Positions 45,512 to 64,000 are shown, counted from the stretch's first letter. The stretch: DNA of 64,000 nt from Escherichia phage vB_EcoM_P8 (PV390659.2); one strand, 5' to 3'. Program-made: numbers and translations. The notes: generated by a model not told the origin, from the letters alone.

Positions 45512-45883
45512 ATGTTTAAAATCGGTAAGAAATATCGTGTTCGCGAAGGCAAAGAAAAGAAATATCTACTTTCTTCTATTTATAGGAATAGTTCTATTAA
45601 TACTGTAATATCTACAAGCGAATTTATCGTTGAAGATATGAAAGGTCATAATGTTACAATGATTAGTACAGCATCTGGAAATGATGGAAAAATTCTTCAT
45701 AGTTTTCAGAGTAATGTTCTAATTTATGATGAAGAATTTGACTTCTTCGAAGAAGTTACAGAAGATTTTGATTTTGAATGCACTATCACTATGAAATCTG
45801 GCGACCCTCTTTCTTTTACAGTTAAAGATGAAAGAAGTCGCTTGAGAATTATTAGTCTTCTTCAAGCCATTAAATTTGAGTGA
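45512..45883 (+). CDS. hypothetical protein
   Basis: 123-aa ORF. Confidence 0.5.
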   Translation: MFKIGKKYRVREGKEKKYLLSSIYRNSSINTVISTSEFIVEDMKGHNVTMISTASGNDGKILHSFQSNVLIYDEEFDFFEEVTEDFDFECTITMKSGDPLSFTVKDERSRLRIISLLQAIKFE

Positions 45884-45887
45884 AATT

Positions 45888-46148
45888 ATGAAATATGTTA
45901 ATCGTTCTATCGCGGCATTAGTATTAGCAGTATCTTTAGTAGGATGTACTGATGCTGATAATGCAACCAAAGTTTTGTCTTCAAGTGGGTTTACTAATAT
46001 TGAAATCACTGGATACAATTGGTTTGGTTGCTCTGAAAATGATTTCCAACACACTGGATTTCGTGCTATTGGACCTACTGGGCAGAAAGTAGAAGGAACC
46101 GTGTGTTCTGGTCTATTCTTCAAGGATTCGACTATCCGTTTTAAATAA
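45888..46148 (+). CDS. predicted lipoprotein (lipobox LVGC)
   Basis: ORF track 45876..46148; ATG 45888; MKYVNRSIAALVLAVSLVGC. Confidence 0.5.
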   Translation: MKYVNRSIAALVLAVSLVGCTDADNATKVLSSSGFTNIEITGYNWFGCSENDFQHTGFRAIGPTGQKVEGTVCSGLFFKDSTIRFK

Positions 46149-46165
46149 AAGGCCTTCGGGCCTTT
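46148..46165 (+). terminator. terminator hairpin AAAGGCC-UUCG-GGCCUUU
   Basis: perfect stem, UUCG loop. Confidence 0.65.
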
Positions 46166-46190
46166 AGCTTTATGATTACCGGAGTATAAT
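46166..46190 (+). promoter_or_regulatory. possible middle promoter for gene 39
   Basis: agcttta 46166-46172, 12 bp spacer, tataat 46185-46190. Confidence 0.4.
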
Positions 46191-46217
46191 ATTCCCAAAA
46201 CCAAACGAGGATAAGTG

Positions 46218-48035
46218 ATGATTAAGAATGAAATTAAAATTCTGAGCGATATTGAACATATCAAAAAGCGTAGCGGCATGTACATTGGTTCTTCTGCTAA
46301 TGAAATGCATGAGCGCTTTCTGTTTGGTAAATGGGAAAGTGTTCAGTATGTACCTGGTCTTGTTAAGCTTATTGATGAAATTATCGATAACTCGGTAGAT
46401 GAAGGTATTCGTACTAAGTTTAAATTCGCAAATAAAATTAATGTTACTATCAAAAACAATCAAGTAACAGTTGAAGATAACGGTCGTGGTATTCCACAGG
46501 CGATGGTTAAAACACCTACTGGTGAAGAAATTCCTGGTCCAGTTGCTGCATGGACTATTCCAAAAGCAGGTGGTAACTTTGGTGATGATAAAGAACGCGT
46601 CACTGGCGGTATGAACGGTGTTGGTTCTAGTTTAACTAACATTTTTTCTGTGATGTTTGTCGGTGAAACTGGCGACGGTCAAAATAATATTGTGGTTCGT
46701 TGTTCAAATGGCATGGAAAATAAATCATGGGAAACTATTCCTGGAAAATGGAAAGGAACTCGCGTTACTTTCATTCCTGATTTTATGTCATTTGAAACTA
46801 ATGAGCTATCTCAAGTTTATCTTGACATTACACTAGATCGTCTCCAGACACTTGCAGTAGTTTATCCTGATATTCAATTTACCTTTAATGGTAAAAAGGT
46901 TCAGGGTAATTTTAAGAAATATGCACGCCAATATGATGAACATGCTATCGTTCAAGAACAAGAAAACTGTTCTATTGCGGTTGGTCGTTCACCCGATGGT
47001 TTTCGTCAATTAACATACGTCAATAACATTCATACTAAGAATGGTGGCCATCACATTGACTGTGTTATGGATGATATTTGTGAAGACCTTATTCCACAAA
47101 TCAAACGTAAATTTAAAATTGACGTAACTAAAGCACGTGTTAAAGAATGTTTGACTATCGTTATGTTTGTTCGTGATATGAAAAACATGCGATTTGATTC
47201 TCAAACTAAAGAGCGTCTGACTTCTCCATTTGGTGAAATCCGTAGTCATATTCAGCTTGATGCTAAAAAGATTTCACGTGCTATTTTAAATAATGAAGCA
47301 ATTTTAATGCCAATCATTGAAGCTGCCTTGGCTCGTAAATTGGCGGCAGAAAAAGCAGCAGAAACTAAAGCAGCTAAAAAGGCTTCTAAAGCTAAGGTTC
47401 ATAAACATATTAAAGCGAATCTTTGTGGTAAAGATGCTGACACTACTCTTTTCTTGACTGAGGGTGATTCCGCTATCGGATATCTTATTGATGTTCGTGA
47501 TAAAGAACTTCATGGTGGTTATCCATTACGTGGTAAAGTTCTCAACAGTTGGGGTATGTCATATGCTGATATGCTTAAAAACAAAGAACTGTTTGATATT
47601 TGCGCAATCACTGGATTAGTTCTTGGTGAAAAAGCCGAAAACTTGAATTATCATAATATTGCTATTATGACTGACGCTGACCACGATGGTCTAGGAAGCA
47701 TTTATCCTTCTCTGCTCGGATTTTTCAGTAATTGGCCAGAACTGTTTGAACAAGGAAGAATTCGCTTTGTCAAAACTCCTGTAATCATCGCTCAGGTCGG
47801 TAAAAAACAAGAATGGTTTTATACAGTCGCTGAATATGAGAGTGCTAAAGATGCTCTACCTAAACATAGCATCCGTTATATTAAGGGACTTGGCTCTTTG
47901 GAAAAATCTGAATATCGTGAGATGATTCAAAACCCAGTATATGATGTTGTTAAACTTCCTGAGAACTGGAAAGAGCTTTTTGAAATGCTTATGGGAGATA
48001 ATGCTGATCTTCGTAAAGAATGGATGAGCCAGTAG
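46218..48035 (+). CDS. 39: topoisomerase II large subunit gp39 (GyrB-like ATPase), unsplit
   Basis: 605-aa continuous ORF; no separate gene 60 or bypass element downstream. Confidence 0.9.
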   Translation: MIKNEIKILSDIEHIKKRSGMYIGSSANEMHERFLFGKWESVQYVPGLVKLIDEIIDNSVDEGIRTKFKFANKINVTIKNNQVTVEDNGRGIPQAMVKTPTGEEIPGPVAAWTIPKAGGNFGDDKERVTGGMNGVGSSLTNIFSVMFVGETGDGQNNIVVRCSNGMENKSWETIPGKWKGTRVTFIPDFMSFETNELSQVYLDITLDRLQTLAVVYPDIQFTFNGKKVQGNFKKYARQYDEHAIVQEQENCSIAVGRSPDGFRQLTYVNNIHTKNGGHHIDCVMDDICEDLIPQIKRKFKIDVTKARVKECLTIVMFVRDMKNMRFDSQTKERLTSPFGEIRSHIQLDAKKISRAILNNEAILMPIIEAALARKLAAEKAAETKAAKKASKAKVHKHIKANLCGKDADTTLFLTEGDSAIGYLIDVRDKELHGGYPLRGKVLNSWGMSYADMLKNKELFDICAITGLVLGEKAENLNYHNIAIMTDADHDGLGSIYPSLLGFFSNWPELFEQGRIRFVKTPVIIAQVGKKQEWFYTVAEYESAKDALPKHSIRYIKGLGSLEKSEYREMIQNPVYDVVKLPENWKELFEMLMGDNADLRKEWMSQ

Positions 48036-58696: not shown

Positions 58697-58969
58697 ATGA
58701 ATAAAAACATTGATACAGTTCGTGAAATTATTACTGTTGCGTCTATTTTGATTAAATTTTCCAGAGAAGATATTGTTGAGAATCGTGCTAATTTTATCGC
58801 ATTTCTGAATGAGATTGGAGTAACGCATGAAGGTAGAAAGTTAAATCAGAATTCATTCCGTAAAATTGTTTCTGAATTAACCCAAGAAGATAAGAAAACC
58901 CTCATCGACGAATTCAACGAGGGTTTTGAGGGTGTATATCGATATCTAGAGATGTATACGAACAAATAA
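58697..58969 (+). CDS. asiA: anti-sigma70 factor AsiA
   Basis: 90 aa, matches remembered T4 AsiA. Confidence 0.9.
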   Translation: MNKNIDTVREIITVASILIKFSREDIVENRANFIAFLNEIGVTHEGRKLNQNSFRKIVSELTQEDKKTLIDEFNEGFEGVYRYLEMYTNK

Positions 58970-59626
58970 TTATTTAGCCCTTCCTAATATTCTGGCCGCC
59001 TGAGAACATATTGATTCAAGGCGGTCATTACTTATATGATCATTTCTATACCAGTACATGGTTATTGTTCCAGCATAGATATTATCCAAGTTAAAATATG
59101 GACAACTGTACATGTAATTTATTTCGGGAGTAGGCTTTTTAGTTGGTAAAAAAGCAAATTTTGAGTTGGAATAATAATGACGTCCATTTAAATGAACTGC
59201 ATATTCATCCATAGTTTTATCAACAGGATATCCTCCAAGTGATTTTTCGCTTATTGTTGAAGGTAATTTTCCTTCATATGCTATAATATCAACAAAATAG
59301 TTTAAGTTTTTAGGGCGGAAAGAATACACCGCACTAAAGTCTGCCTCAGATGATATGTGAACTATCTGGAGTTGTTCCAGGGCGACAGATTCAAAGCGTG
59401 CATTTCTTTCCTTTTCAATAATTTCACTGTATGTTTCATACTTTGATTGCTTATAGTACTCAAAGAAACTATCTCCCCTATACCAAACAATCGCCATTAT
59501 AAACAAAAGAATTACGACAGCTACCCGGGAAGCAAGAACTTTCCCGGTAGCGTTATCTTTGAACAAGCGATCTAGAACACCCAACAGAATATCAGAGGGC
59601 GAAAATGATATTCTAGGTGCTGCCAT
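58970..59626 (-). CDS. t: holin T
   Basis: 218 aa, single N-terminal TM, matches remembered T4 holin. Confidence 0.9.
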   Translation of the reverse strand: MAAPRISFSPSDILLGVLDRLFKDNATGKVLASRVAVVILLFIMAIVWYRGDSFFEYYKQSKYETYSEIIEKERNARFESVALEQLQIVHISSEADFSAVYSFRPKNLNYFVDIIAYEGKLPSTISEKSLGGYPVDKTMDEYAVHLNGRHYYSNSKFAFLPTKKPTPEINYMYSCPYFNLDNIYAGTITMYWYRNDHISNDRLESICSQAARILGRAK

Positions 59627-59656
59627 AGACCCTCCTTTTAAGGATATTTATTCAAA

Positions 59657-60433
59657 TTATACTCTTGGACCATATATTGCTCCAACGTTTTGCCACGTTG
59701 GCGTAGACCCTATGACGGCATAACCAGCAGCTCCGCCATCGTATTCATATCCTTGACCACGAATATTACATCTACCTCCTGCGGAGCCAACTTCACCACC
59801 AGACCCGCCGCTATAGATACCGTTCACAGACCCTGCGCCAGGCGCAGAAATAGTACCGGCAGTTGCTCCTGATTGCATATCAATAGATCCGCCCGGCGCG
59901 CCAAACGGACGACCGCCACCACCGCCAAATGTCAATCTCATTTGTGAAAAAGGAGAATAATATCCGCCACCGCCGCCGCCACCGCCGCCAGCAATAGCTC
60001 CGCCATTATTAATTCTTAGTCTCCCACCAATATCATTTTGAATACAATGACCTCCAGCTGAGCCAGGACTATTGCTACCGCCATTCCCGCCACGGCCATA
60101 CATCGTTACACCGTGTATATTCAGTTGAACATATTCATTTGGTGTATCTCCGTACATGAAGAATAAAGGAACATCTTTAGAATATGATACTAAATCTCCG
60201 GTGATATTAAACACTATAGGTGCACTACCTGCCTCAAAACATCTATCTCGGAACCATTGACCATTGAAGTTATGGTCTGCTCCAAGCGTGTGAATTATTT
60301 CAACAGATCGACCTATCATATTACTCATCCAAAACGGAATGCCCATTCTTAATCGTTGGGCCGCGCCACCCATCCAATTTTGTCCTGTATTAACTACTGC
60401 AGACGATCCTACCCACGGTCCTGTTACTGCCAT
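59657..60433 (-). CDS. 38: gp38 receptor-recognising tail fibre tip adhesin (T2-type, polyglycine-delimited segments)
   Basis: ORF track 59657..60445; ATG at 60433; runs [22 protein letters not shown]. Confidence 0.8.
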
Positions 60434-60444
60434 ATAAACCCCCA

Positions 60445-60460
60445 AGGGGCCGAAGCCCCT
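60445..60460 (-). other. intergenic RNA hairpin (GGGGC-UUCG-GCCCC) between genes 37 and 38
   Basis: perfect stem and UUCG loop in the 31-nt 37-38 spacer; no T run. Confidence 0.45.
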
Positions 60461-60464
60461 CTTA

Positions 60465-63400
60465 TTATTTTAACAATGATTTAACTAATGCTTTAAGTTC
60501 TTCGATTTCTGATTTAAGTTCTGCAATTTCTGCAGTATGCTCATTGATTGCAGCTGTATTTAAACCAATTACACCGTTATAGTTCAAACGAAGTAAAGCT
60601 TCACCATCAGGGTCACCTTCAACTAATTCAGGTAAAATAGCTTGAACTTCTTGAGCTATCAAACCGGCGTTAGGTTCCCATTTCTGATTTCCTTCTTCAT
60701 CTAGGCCTCGCTTCTGCATATAAGTGTAACCGTTAATTTTAGAAAGCTTCTCAGAAGCATTTTCAAATTTAACAAGGTCTTTTTTAACACGAATATCAGA
60801 ACGGACATAAACATCGCGGACAAATGTGGAATAGGCATCGCTTTGTTGGACTAAATGACCAAAAGAAATAATAGCTCTTCCTTGTTCAGTCCACAAAGCA
60901 CCAGTGGTATCCCAAAGACCTTCATGGAGATGGTAAGCGGACGACCATGAAGCAATATGCATTCCATTTGCAACCATGTTAATACGACCGTCACCGCCAT
61001 GAACTAACCCAGTGTCATTATCACCAATAACAACACATGCGCCTGTCCATGCAGGGTCACCTCCACCAGCTGATATTCTTACTCCAGCTTTAACCATGTC
61101 AGGAACGTACATGTTTCCATTATGGTGGAATTCGAAGATAGCTTGCGGATCGCTAGCATTTTCCTGGTTACCAACACGGATAATAGCCTGAGCCCATTGG
61201 TTAGTGATACGGCGCATACCGAAATCAACACCAGATACGTATCCTTCATTCGTAATAACAGATTTTCCTTTAATAATAGGATAATAGCAGTCATTGCCGA
61301 CGTAGCCAAAATCTACAAATATCGGCGCTTCTTGTCGCCATTGGTTTGCCCAATCGCCAGCTTGGTGCGCAGTCCACTGTGTACCGTTTATATGAAGGCG
61401 GTCTCTATTAAAATTAAATGTTCCTTGACCTTGAGGAGAAAGCGATATTTCGCCGTTATTTGTTATGTATACACCGCCTTGTGTAATGTAACTGTAAAAA
61501 CCTAGACCATTATCGCCGCCGCCTTTGCCTATATACCAGTTACCTGTACCACCTACATCACTACGGATGTGCGATGAAGCACCCACGCCTGCAGTTAAAA
61601 CAAGAGCATCATTGCCTGCCGATAAAGTCAATTTACCGGTCATCGTGTCGCCTTCTTTCGAAACACGAGTCGCAATAGCATCGCGAATATTTGTAGTATC
61701 ACCGGCAGAAGTAAACGGTTTCCAAATATCAGACCAGATATTACCATTTCGAGCAATAGTAGCTTCACCACCACCGACCTGAACGTTATCCGGGAAGTTA
61801 ACAGTACCGTCTTGATTAAAACGAGACGTATGGCCTTGTGATCCATCTTCTTTGATATGGTGTAAAACAAATGTACCCGAATTAATTTCAGTACCTAAAG
61901 ACCAAACCGCTTTACTGTTTAAAAACTTCTGTTTAACAATAGGATAATATTTGTTTATAGCATCATCATCATCAATTTCCTGGAAAATAGGAGCTGCTTG
62001 AACATACTGAATATCATAACCACCAGCGCCTGCACCGTGACCAGTAAATTTAATATAGCCGTTTGCTGCGAACGTATTGTAACTTGATTGTAAATCTGGA
62101 ATAGTAACTTTACCAGTATCTAAAGCCATACTAAACGGGCGAAGTGGACCGATATCGCCATGTTTACCTTCACCGTAAGCAGTTGGAATAATATGAAGAC
62201 TGCCTTCTGAACGTCTAAAAATGGCTCCATAATCTGCATTCCAAATGCGAAGCGCATTCACTGCTCCAGATGAAATTTCGCCTGTTGTGTGAACTCCTCT
62301 ATTTCCAGCAGTAACACCGGATGATTCAAATGAACCATTGACGTTCATTTCTACTTCACCGGTAGTAAGTCTTTGAATATAACTCATCCAGCTAGTTGCG
62401 TCAGAAATTTCCATGACATTTTTACGATTACCTACACTAGGATTAGTAAACGTATTACCCCATACAGAAATTGTCATATTATCAACTGAACTGCTACCAG
62501 TTGTGTTACCTCTAAACATCAGCGTAGAAGCATTATTACGACCATCAATATTAACAGAACCACCAATAACGTCAATATTACCGGGAGTAACTAACAAACC
62601 GCCGTGAGTATTAATGTTTGTAGTACCTTTACCACGGAAATAGTGATGATAATTACCACCTTGATAATAACCTAAAAGAGTCTGACCGTCGCCATACGCG
62701 TTATTATCATGATAAGTAACAACAGTGGCTAATGCATAGTTTTCTGTCGGTGGCGTTGTCATAAGAATCCCATCCGGAGAATAACCCATAACCATTTTTC
62801 TAAGGCTTTGTGTTTCCGCAGGACCGTAAATGAAAGTTCTTGTTCCGTTGTTTACTGTATGAAAATATCCGTCCTGATGCCATTTAAATCCGGTATCATT
62901 ATCACCAAGAGCAATTGAAGCAGTCCCTAATTCAGAATATCCTTTAGAGCCGCCCGGAAGACCTATAGAAATAGAATGGCCTGCTTTCAATCCACCGGAC
63001 CAGGTAAACGACCAAAGATAGGCATCTAACCCGTCACCGGCGTACCAGGTTATCCCGTCGTTATCTTTAACTTCATGGAATATACCAGATCCTACGGCAT
63101 TTCGCATAACACGGAGGTGGTTAATAGCCGTTTCGCTTTCTGCCAACGGAGTGTTATTTGCTAATGAATAGATATCATAATCGCCTGTCTTCTTCCCATT
63201 TGTAATAACTTTATCGGTCAGAATTTGTGGAGACGAAATAGATTTCCATGCTGATACTTCAGGTGAAGTAAATAGGCCACTGCCTGAAAATGCATAGGTG
63301 CTTTCATCACCAGCGGCGTAGTCTTGAACGCGGATATTAACTACTTGCGTAGTTAATCCATCATTAGCCGGGGCATAAATGATTCCACGTTCGCGGCTAT

Positions 63401-63779
63401 TGCCATCGAAAAAACGAACATGCGATGTACCTGAACTTTTTGTAATAAGTTCTCCACCCTCAGTCATAATCTGCCCGGCGGCAATAATATCGCGAGTTAC
63501 TCGAGCAATACCAGTTAAATTGAAATCACCGGTTTGAGTGAAGGTACCATTTAAAGTATAATCACCAGTTTGATTATAGTTTCCTATATGAATAACATTC
63601 CCGTCAATGCTACCGCCTTTAGCAAAACCAAGATCAATGATATTTCCTTGGTCATCTTTAGTAAAAAGTACGCGGTCTTTTAAGTTTATAGCCAATTCAC
63701 CTTCGGCTAATACTGAAGCGGCAGGACGTGCTCCTGCAGTTTTGCTTCTTTTAAATTGTATTTGTTTTAAAGTAGCCAT
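60465..63779 (-). CDS. 37: long tail fibre distal subunit gp37
   Basis: 1104 aa; N-terminus [13 protein letters not shown] as T4 gp37; C-terminal coiled-coil segment unlike T4. Confidence 0.9.
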
Positions 63780-63787
63780 AAGTCCTC

Positions 63788-64000
63788 TTAATAATAGCCG
63801 AAATCTTGAACAGAATCCTTAATAACAATTTGATCAAATCGTGGAACATGTGAGGGTTGAGATGCAGGATTCTGTGAAAAAAGGTTTGGCGCAGTTAAAT
63901 TTCCTGTCATAGTATCTCCAGAGCGTAATACCCTAGAGTTTGCGTTTGCTGTAACAATATTTATTGCTCCATCAACATAATCTTTCCGTGTAAGGTCATA
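63788..64000 (-). CDS. 36: tail fibre protein gp36, 3' part (partial at window edge)
   Basis: 70 codons open to window end on - strand, stop TAA at 63790-63788. Confidence 0.55.
   Translation of the reverse strand, partial: YDLTRKDYVDGAINIVTANANSRVLRSGDTMTGNLTAPNLFSQNPASQPSHVPRFDQIVIKDSVQDFGYY

Follow-up and report, generated by a model that had tools for sequence, protein, structure and literature searches.

A probable T2/T6-type receptor-recognition module in the long tail fibre of Escherichia phage vB_EcoM_P8, with Tsx as the predicted primary receptor

The window analysed here is a stretch of 64,000 nucleotides of Escherichia phage vB_EcoM_P8 (PV390659.2), and the combined use of ORF calling, Pfam and the deposited record places in it genes 37 and 38 of the long tail fibre with the holin gene t downstream of both (Table 1). 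The gene order 36-37-38-t-asiA is that of T6, T2 and RB27, and gene 38 lies directly after gene 37 and before the holin gene in these three phages as well as in RB32 and RB51. The record of Escherichia phage vB_EcoM_BMB16 (Tequatrovirus) shows 100% identity to the window; it labels gp38 as a "hypothetical protein" and gp37 as a "tail fiber", and the literature on BMB16 consists of a dfrA study (PMC12466917) without receptor or fibre data. Our ORF lister opened gene 38 at a TTG (position 60445, 262 aa) located just 3' of the stem of an intergenic hairpin; the start in the deposited BMB16 record is an ATG. Both proteins have the lengths given in a first-pass annotation of the sequence, and gp37 ends with the residues quoted there.

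Table 1. Features of the gene 37-38 region (positions in the window; HVS boundaries are approximate)
Feature	Position	Strand	Remarks
Gene 38	59657..60433	minus	258 aa from ATG, MAVTGPW...; receptor-recognising tail-fibre tip adhesin by homology
gp38 aa 1-40	60314..60433	minus	N-terminal attachment domain (Pfam Gp38_N); W7, W20, W35
gp38 aa 41-110	60104..60313	minus	Conserved linker and beta-helix part; named by S16 gp38 homology (PMC6851490)
gp38 aa 111-258	59660..60103	minus	Specificity domain: GRM1-HVS1-GRM2-HVS2-GRM3-HVS3-GRM4-HVS4-GRM5 and conserved C-terminus
HVS1	60005-60079	minus	
HVS2	59930-59962	minus	
HVS3	59807-59887	minus	
HVS4	59738-59776	minus	
Glycine-codon tracts	59913..60092		Four near-identical 15-nt tracts, CCGCCACCNCCGCCA on the plus strand, in GRM1, GRM2 and GRM3; repeat search, 80-100% identity
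Shine-Dalgarno of gene 38	60439..60443	minus	GGGGG; relatives have GGAGG
C(UUCG)G tetraloop hairpin	60444..60461	minus	Within the 31-nt spacer of genes 37 and 38
Gene 37	60465..63779	minus	1104 aa; long tail fibre distal subunit precursor
gp37 aa 1-50	63630..63779	minus	Conserved N-terminus common to T4, T2 and T6; presumed gp36 joint
gp37 aa 450-550	62130..62432	minus	Gp34_trimer-like shaft domain (Pfam PF21446, E=1.1e-07, above cut-off)
gp37 aa 900-993	60801..61082	minus	Predicted distal end of the mature fibre, last residues ...DVYVR993; predicted gp38 docking face
gp37 aa 994-1104	60468..60800	minus	Intramolecular chaperone at the C-terminus (Peptidase_S74); virions are predicted to lack it after auto-cleavage
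SDIRVK, gp37 aa 994-999	60783..60800	minus	Predicted Ser-Lys catalytic motif; predicted cut R993/S994
gp37 aa 1076-1104	60468..60554	minus	Amphipathic heptad helix, terminal helix of the chaperone domain

The profile search of gp38 returned Gp38_N (PF21721; E=1.5e-21, 76.6 bits) at aa 1-40 against positions 1-40 of the 40-position model, and GP38 (PF05268; E=2.4e-71, 240.5 bits at a cut-off of 25) at aa 45-258 against positions 1-218 of 218. The protein also matches PHROG 2056 ("tail fiber protein; host specificity", E=2e-110), and in the PDB its aa 1-255 match S16 gp38 (6F45_D, E=6.7e-52), the best match being the receptor-binding domain of PP01 gp38 (9V85, E=4.5e-81). Judged as sequence matches, these assignments to the adhesin family lie far beyond chance expectation. 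Within the attachment domain W7, W20 and W35 are invariant in an alignment of seven phages, and a role has been described for the Trp prongs of the S16 gp38 N-terminus (PMC6851490). This domain is identical to that of RB51 (40/40) and differs from those of T6 (23/42) and T2 (19/42), while the following linker region is closest to RB27, FL23 and RB51 (67-69 of 70-71), then to T6 (61/71) and T2 (30/71).

The specificity domain is built from five glycine-rich motifs (GRMs), in which the glycines and the RPFG sequence are invariant in the same alignment, and from the variable segments (HVSs) between them. Glycine runs separating variable segments had been noticed in the first-pass annotation, and they are found at G149-G157 (nine glycines, then YY) and G170-G174 (then RPFGAPGG). 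Glycine makes up 24% of gp38 and 33% of aa 110-258, and because of the glycine codons the local GC content rises to 0.52, compared with 0.35 for the whole window. The glycine-codon tracts listed in Table 1 would fit the published idea that GRMs supply microhomology for the exchange of HVSs (PMC3157838). A single-sequence AlphaFold2 model of gp38 (pLDDT 28.9) could not support a fold search; a polyglycine-II sandwich and beta-helix fold is suggested by the homologues 6F45_D and 9V85.

The allele class of the specificity domain was assessed by tblastn, which gave a bimodal distribution among 204 phage records: 125 at 90% identity or more, 4 at 80-90% and 75 at 60-80%. The window allele sits in the upper mode. 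It is closest to RB27 (146/148), FL23 (140/148) and T6 (138/148), as opposed to RB32 (86/160; an OmpA phage), T2 (77/154) and RB51 (72/152; an OmpF phage), and differs from RB27 at two positions (G211S, S229Y) and from T6 at ten. The separate segments follow the same division, with identities to T6 of 25/25 (HVS1), 10/11 (HVS2), 22/27 (HVS3) and 12/13 (HVS4), versus 12/26, 0/11, 6/27 and 5/16 to T2; the four HVSs combined match RB27 at 75 of 76 positions. On these alignments the variable segments are T6-like and not T2-like, and neither the HVS sequences nor the attachment domain fall into the T2 subtype. The label "T2-type" given earlier to the module is thus apt for the architecture, which is common to T2 and T6, but it does not extend to the specificity loops, which are of the T6 (Tsx) class.

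That the segments between the glycine motifs set the host range, as the first-pass annotation had proposed, is already established (PMC3157838, PMC12032242, preprint 10.64898/2026.04.02.716166), and swapping gene 38 between CM8 and EV240 switched the host range. Within the class with at least 90% identity, all members whose E. coli receptor has been mapped use Tsx: RB3, RB5, RB6, RB7, RB14 and RB27 (PMC3157838), FL04, FL15, FL23 and FL44 (PMC12032242) and, according to an RB-TnSeq table, T6, CM8, Bas35, Bas36 and Bas37. Overall, about 15 phages of this class have been mapped on E. coli K-12 and are Tsx-dependent, PST being the only one that also needs OmpA; the next allele class, at ~77% identity (JK38), uses Tsx too. 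Since the loop set of the window belongs to the T6/RB27 allele class, the prediction for the primary receptor of the phage in E. coli is Tsx, the nucleoside channel. We consider it very probable that the locus encodes the receptor-recognising distal end of the long tail fibre of a T2/T6-type Tequatrovirus, with this receptor assignment. Loss of tsx would then be the main route of host resistance.

It appears unlikely that the same module has a primary receptor other than Tsx, or one in addition to it, because the few residues that differ from T6 and RB27 redirect or broaden binding, for example towards OmpA or LPS. Such changes are on record. PST, with 90.8% identity in the specificity domain, is three residues apart from T6 and has gained its OmpA dependence, and in RB68 the single HVS3 change Q206L relative to RB51 shifts the receptor from OmpF to OmpW. 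The Yersinia phage fPS-65 (95% identity in the domain) stems from work in which OmpF and LPS are reported as the receptors used in Yersinia (PMC7917993). The window gp38 has S229Y in HVS4, and 5 of its 27 HVS3 positions are unlike T6. On the other hand, its close relatives RB27 and FL23 are among the Tsx-dependent phages mapped on K-12, the Tsx assignment holds even in the JK38 class, and at the HVS2 positions that Trojet reported as PST-specific the window retains the T6 residues Q-M. More doubtful still, and rather speculative, is a receptor use beyond the K-12 Tsx that arises because T6-class loops (with S229Y and G211S) are combined with a mosaic gp37 tip and an attachment domain of the RB51/RB27 type; by likeness to the one-to-three-residue switches in PST and RB68, such a combination might reach Tsx variants of O157 strains or a second outer-membrane protein.

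The C-terminal part of gp37 (aa 912-1104) aligns to the S16 gp37 chain of the solved gp37-gp38 complex (6F45_A, E=1.7e-43). A Peptidase_S74 match (PF13884; E=1.1e-12, 48.5 bits at a cut-off of 22) covers aa 994-1053 against positions 1-57 of the 58-position model, and the domain, which is near-colinear with the S16 intramolecular chaperone (IMC), is also found in T2, T6, RB32 and RB51; in the alignment both the domain and its S-D-x-R-x-K motif are absent from T4 gp37. The motif reads SDIRLK in T2, SDSRLK in T6, SDRRLK in RB32 and SDRRIK in S16, and is kept in RB51 as well. Its Ser and Lys presumably form the dyad of MEROPS family S74. The S16 IMC is cleaved at DLNVS^SDRRIKK, and this auto-cleavage uncovers the docking surface for gp38 (PMC7917993); the window sequence DVYVR is aligned with S16 DLNVS, directly before that site. 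In T2 and T6, gp37 has long been known to be processed proteolytically (PMC3157838). By analogy, we predict auto-cleavage of the window gp37 between R993 and S994, with exposure of the gp38 docking face.

The first-pass annotation had described the end of gp37 as coiled-coil-like. The last 45 residues do have L, I or V at eight core positions in a heptad a/d register, the pattern extending over the last ~30 aa, and the terminal helix (pLDDT 86-90) is the sole confidently predicted one in a single-sequence AlphaFold2 model of aa 900-1104, whose mean pLDDT of 38.8 was too poor for a fold search. As a feature of the finished fibre, however, the coiled coil did not hold up, because the S74 chaperone of which it forms the terminal helix is predicted to be cleaved off. 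The clean heptad pattern and the predicted helix would also suit a trimerisation element kept in the mature fibre, with gp38 binding elsewhere, as cleavage in this phage is argued from homology; we regard this as very unlikely, given that the helix lies within a domain that Pfam names "chaperone of endosialidase" and whose SDxRxK motif is intact, that it aligns with the C-terminus of the S16 IMC as part of an end-to-end alignment with this auto-cleaved domain, whose removal makes the gp38 binding face, and that gp37 is processed in T2 and T6.

The structure and synteny of the genes, their protein families, the conserved motifs and the allele class are shown by the sequence itself. With removal of the chaperone as the preferred reading, homology to S16, T2 and T6 points to the following scheme for cleavage, 3:1 docking, polyglycine-II folding and Tsx binding. 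The gp37 chain would first be synthesised as the 1104-aa precursor, and its last 111 residues (aa 994-1104) would serve as the intramolecular chaperone, the terminal amphipathic helix bundling three gp37 chains and nucleating the folding of the trimer. Once folding is complete, the Ser994/Lys999 motif would cut its own chain at R993/S994 and the chaperone would depart. The exposed trimeric face, ending in ...DVYVR, may then take up one gp38 monomer through the 40-residue N-terminal domain of the latter with its conserved tryptophans. The glycine-rich motifs of gp38 would pack as polyglycine-II helices and display the hypervariable loops at the extreme tip, where loops of the T6/RB27 class would recognise Tsx as the primary E. 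coli receptor.

The whole of gp37 matches PHROG 1699 ("long tail fiber protein distal subunit") over its full length (E=0). A T4-like N-terminus, as claimed earlier, is present in a narrow sense: aa 1-50 share 90% of their residues with T4 (T2, 94%; T6, 84%) and presumably form the junction with gp36, residues 1-35 being invariant in an alignment of nine phages save for T14, A17 and the edges of the D35 region. Identity collapses past aa 50, and aa 1-641 as a whole reach 35% with T4 gp37. In the shaft, PDB matches were obtained with the T4 gp34 fragments 4UXE and 5NXF (E~1e-11). The T4 tip is missing, in agreement with the first-pass annotation: no significant HSP extends past window aa 641 (T4 aa 743) into the T4 C-terminal region (~aa 744-1026), T4 is gapped across window aa 850-1104, and the PDB matches include no T4 gp37 chain. 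T4 shares with the window the locus, the gp37 N-terminus, the hairpin between genes 37 and 38 and a distantly homologous shaft; it differs in that its gp37 has no S74 domain and binds the receptor with its own C-terminal domain, and in that its gp38, a chaperone of unrelated sequence, is released (PMC12892980). That the window gp38 is likewise a T4-style assembly chaperone left out of virions is hardly credible, even though its genomic position is identical and the T6 record and a few other GenBank records use the product name "distal long tail fiber assembly catalyst". BLASTP against T4 gp38 yields nothing significant (best E=1.8, spanning 12 residues), and the T4-type chaperone family is absent among the Pfam profile matches. 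The adhesin family matches are full-length, the homologues include gp38 proteins whose structures were determined in complex with gp37 or that served as receptor-binding domains, and the T4 record itself states that the "gp38" of the T2 subfamily is unrelated to its own and is the adhesin. By sequence, the window gp38 is a full-length Gp38_N plus GP38 adhesin, as the first-pass annotation had it, and unrelated to the T4 chaperone.

Overall identity of gp37 is 92% to RB27, 90% to GEP001, 89% to RB51 and 36% to T4. Its aa 701-800 are RB51-like (96%, versus 54-64% to RB27), and aa 301-350 match alleles of the PP01/ESh32/SP1 type. The latter segment, 68% identical to four close relatives, was considered as a unique one and rejected; several other phages carry it with 100% identity, and it therefore reflects ordinary mosaicism. 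On these alignments, gp37 is a mosaic pieced together from alleles in circulation.

Among known systems, the modules of RB27, GEP001, PD112 and BP32 are the nearest, with the same gp37 length (1103-1104 aa), IMC and spacer hairpin. The gp38 of GEP001 is 100% identical to that of the window and that of the Tsx phage RB27 (PMC3157838) 97.7% identical; the window departs from this group in the two gp37 segments just described and in the Shine-Dalgarno sequence of gene 38. T6 gp38 has all four HVSs of the same class but an unlike attachment domain. T6 gp37, at 994 aa, is the shorter one, lacks an equivalent of most of aa 901-985 in the window tip and carries a diverged IMC (~28-30% identity). These differences fit the published lock-and-key pairing between the N-terminus of gp38 and the C-terminus of gp37. 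T2 shares the attachment domain, the five glycine-rich motifs, the four HVSs, the conserved C-terminus and the cleavable gp37 S74 domain, but its gp38 is 50% identical overall, with a different attachment subtype and receptor (FadL/OmpF). The S16 gp37(3)-gp38 complex (6F45) has the Trp prongs, the GRM order and the SDxRxK motif in common with the window; S16 binds Salmonella OmpC with unrelated loops, and relative to it the window gp37 tip has a 12-residue insertion. PP01 gp38 (9V85) is nearly identical at aa 37-135 and conserved in the GRMs, whereas its HVS2-4 are unlike those of the window and its receptor is the OmpC of O157 (PMC12892980). The IMCs of endosialidases and T5 pb1 (MEROPS S74) agree in PF13884, the C-terminal position, the SDxRxK motif and the terminal helical bundle; there the domain simply serves spike or fibre maturation, while in the window it sits on a T-even fibre shaft and its removal would make a dock for a separate adhesin.

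The module is ordinary and well characterised, its architecture, cleavage mechanism and link between loop allele and receptor having all been published, and the same gp38 allele is found in many sequenced phages. No new biology is added, and the practical value lies in annotation and prediction: a Tsx-class adhesin for gp38, a self-processing fibre precursor for gp37 and, for retargeting the phage by gene 38 swaps, the region from HVS2 onwards.

Scans of the whole window for tRNAs and Rfam families gave no matches, and a 188-aa minus-strand ORF (45719-46285) was rejected as spurious because it has no family match and overlaps real plus-strand genes. In the region 58800-64000, promoter-like sites were in slight excess (20, against 15.7 ± 3.9 in shuffles), and the one notable terminator-like match was the antisense reading of the hairpin in the 37-38 spacer. 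This hairpin carries its UUCG loop on a 7-bp stem (-17.8 kcal/mol for the 56-nt context, z=-2.0), and its core GGGC-TT-G-CCC is invariant across eight T-even phages, T4 included. The A-to-G change in the adjacent Shine-Dalgarno sequence of gene 38 occurs only in the window and BMB16.

Genes 37 and 38 and the holin gene t are consecutive minus-strand ORFs (see the table), and the window ends within gene 36. Across its 4.1 kb this region does not differ from Escherichia phage vB_EcoM_BMB16 (100% identity; genus Tequatrovirus, PV102577.1), and the records ranking after it reach ~91-92%; the BMB16 record annotates gene 38 as "hypothetical protein" and gene 37 as "tail fiber".

Features of the tail fibre tip locus and of the early region
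Feature	Position	Strand	Description
gene 37	60465-63779	-	ORF, 1104 aa
gp37 insertion	60918-60953	-	aa 943-954, 12 residues
37-38 spacer hairpin	60444-60461	-	GAGGGGC-UUCG-GCCCCUU, C(UUCG)G tetraloop, within 31-nt spacer
gene 38 Shine-Dalgarno	60439-60443	-	GGGGG in window and BMB16
gene 38	59657-60433	-	ORF, 258 aa counted from ATG
gene 38-t spacer	59627-59656	-	
holin gene t	58970-59626	-	ORF
topoisomerase ORF	46215-48035	+	single ORF, 606 aa
antisense ORF	45719-46285	-	ATG ORF, 188 aa

The glycine runs that the first-pass annotation had read in gp38 are present (nine consecutive glycines at G149-G157 followed by YY, and GGGGG at residues 170-174 followed by RPFGAPGG). Glycine makes up 24% of the whole protein and 33% of residues 110-258, which accounts for a local GC spike (~0.5 versus 0.35 window-wide). 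A complete Gp38_N domain (aa 1-40, E=1.5e-21) is followed by Pfam GP38 (aa 45-258, E=2.4e-71), and the PHROGs match is "tail fiber protein; host specificity" (E=2e-110). Among solved structures, gp38 matched the receptor-binding domain of PP01 gp38 (9V85, E=4.5e-81) and, over its whole length, S16 gp38 in its gp37-trimer-bound structure (6F45_D, E=6.7e-52), while BLASTP against T4 gp38 detected no similarity. Therefore, gp38 is an adhesin rather than a T4-type chaperone, as the first-pass annotation had held. Every defining feature of the Gp38 adhesin family that can be tested in silico was found in it.

The alignment of gp38 with T6, T2, RB27, FL23, RB32 (OmpA) and RB51 (OmpF), the first-pass annotation having called for T2 and T6 among others, bore out the glycine-delimited variable segments: no variation was seen in the glycine-rich motifs (GRMs), RPFG, W7/W20/W35 near the N-terminus or the C-terminal tail, and the segments in between vary. 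Identity to T6 and T2, respectively, was 25/25 and 12/26 in the hypervariable segment HVS1, 10/11 and 0/11 in HVS2, 22/27 and 6/27 in HVS3, and 12/13 and 5/16 in HVS4. Over the specificity domain (aa 111-258) the closest sequences were RB27 (146/148), FL23 (140/148) and T6 (138/148), with RB32 at 86/160, T2 at 77/154 and RB51 at 72/152. For the attachment domain (aa 1-40) the picture was reversed, with high identity to RB51 (40/40) and RB27 (37/40) and low identity to T6 (23/42) and T2 (19/42). This reversed pattern indicates that gp38 carries T6-class loops on an attachment domain of the RB27/RB51 type. Hence "T2-type" holds as the name of an architecture (in the usage of PMC12892980) and fails as a guide to specificity, given the T6-class loops and an HVS2 sharing no residue with T2. 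Four near-identical 15-nt glycine-codon tracts in gene 38, within GRM1-3, fit the published view of glycine motifs as recombination linkers for loop exchange.

A tblastn search of phage records with the specificity domain alone gave a bimodal distribution of identity: at least 90% in 125 of the 204 matching records, 80-90% in 4 and 60-80% in 75. Wherever the E. coli receptor of a phage in the at-least-90% class has been mapped by experiment, infection depends on Tsx. The phages so mapped are RB3, RB5, RB6, RB7, RB14 and RB27, described as having "T6-like adhesin sequences" (PMC3157838), FL04, FL15, FL23 and FL44, assayed on MG1655 deletion mutants (PMC12032242), and T6, CM8, Bas35, Bas36 and Bas37, assigned by genome-wide RB-TnSeq (preprint 10.64898/2026.04.02.716166). 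The receptor is likewise Tsx in the next allele class (JK38, ~77% identity). On the other hand, PST (91% identical in this domain) needs OmpA in addition to Tsx, a single substitution suffices to shift RB51 from OmpF to OmpW, and Yersinia phage fPS-65, whose domain is 95% identical, was described in a study in which OmpF and LPS are the receptors reported for Yersinia. Overall, homology of the loops makes Tsx the very probable receptor of this gp38.

The closest relatives are the RB27/GEP001 module, with the same allele class and architecture, T6, which shares the loops but has another attachment subtype and another gp37 tip, and two phages with solved structures, S16 and PP01. The module is already known, since its sequence is deposited, an identical gp38 allele occurs in another phage and the mechanism is published; the yield of the analysis is a corrected annotation and a concrete receptor prediction open to test. 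The features tested for a T4 gp38 chaperone, a T2 loop subtype and a T4 gp37 tip were not found in the window proteins.

The terminal segment of gp37, initially described as coiled-coil-like, has the sequence given in the first-pass annotation. It does show a clean a/d heptad pattern, and in a single-sequence model that is poor elsewhere it alone is predicted as a helix with confidence. It is probably not the end of the finished fibre. Pfam Peptidase_S74 ("chaperone of endosialidase") matches aa 994-1053 (48.5 bits, cut-off 22), residues 912-1104 match the gp37 construct in the S16 structure 6F45 (E=1.7e-43), and the last 120 residues align to S16 nearly gap-free, terminal helix included. The domain opens with SDIRVK (aa 994-999); S-D-x-R-x-K is kept in T2, T6, RB32, RB51 and S16, and T4 gp37 lacks the entire domain. 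Every defining feature of the S74 chaperone family testable in silico was present. In S16, the last 113 residues of gp37 reportedly form an intramolecular chaperone, auto-cleaved after trimerisation at DLNVS^SDRRIKK to expose the gp38 docking surface (PMC7917993), and proteolytic processing of T2 and T6 gp37 is long known (PMC3157838). By alignment, the window gp37 would be cut at DVYVR^SDIRVKK (R993/S994), releasing 111 residues; together with these precedents, this suggests that the segment is an assembly device. Single-sequence models of gp38 and gp37 were both unusable, and the fold membership predicted for gp38 and the S74 domain is by homology to solved structures.

The T4-type N-terminus noted earlier for gp37 holds in a narrow sense, identity to T4 being 90% over residues 1-50. 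Residues 1-641 align to T4 gp37 (35% identity) with no significant alignment to it beyond, as expected of a non-T4 C-terminus. Overall, gp37 is in one family with RB27, RB51, FL23 and GEP001, to which it is 88-92% identical. Residues 701-800 are RB51-like (96%) and not RB27-like (54-64%), and residues 301-350 are 68% identical to RB27, RB51, FL23 and GEP001 but are found unchanged (100%) in PP01-like, ESh32/34 and SP1 phages. Over window positions 60801-63779 (minus strand), the protein is thus a mosaic of circulating alleles, RB27-like outside these two segments. A Gp34_trimer-like shaft domain lies at aa 450-550. An internal repeat was also observed, aa 807-906 being weakly similar to T4 aa 686-786, which overlaps the T4 part aligned with window aa 585-641. 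An H-x-H motif lies in the insertion at aa 943-954, relative to S16 gp37; the equivalent place reads HEH in RB51, and FL23 has no such motif. In the T4 gp37 needle, iron is coordinated by H-x-H motifs, and the insertion is a candidate metal site.

The core of the 37-38 spacer hairpin does not vary among eight T-even phages, T4, T2, T6, RB27, RB32, RB51 and FL23 among them. It is kept although T4 gene 38 has no homology to its counterpart in the other phages, which suggests a conserved RNA-level role, e.g. in mRNA stability or processing. The gene 38 Shine-Dalgarno sequence is GGAGG in GEP001, RB27, FL23, RB51, T6 and RB32. The gene 38-t spacer contains AATAAATA, one mismatch away from the T4 late-promoter consensus TATAAATA, followed by a strong t ribosome-binding site, AAGGAGG.

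Within window positions 1-64000, which span the T-even early region and the fibre tip without the tRNA cluster, no tRNA genes and no Rfam families at gathering threshold were found. Most likely spurious is the 188-aa ORF, which is antisense to early genes, had no PHROG match and overlaps plus-strand ORFs with phage family matches (phrog_622, phrog_902). The 606-aa ORF gave a full-length match to the large subunit of DNA topoisomerase II, within which lie aa 453-606, the part covered by PHROG 7229. In T4 this gene is in two parts, genes 39 and 60, with translational bypass; in the window it appears unsplit.
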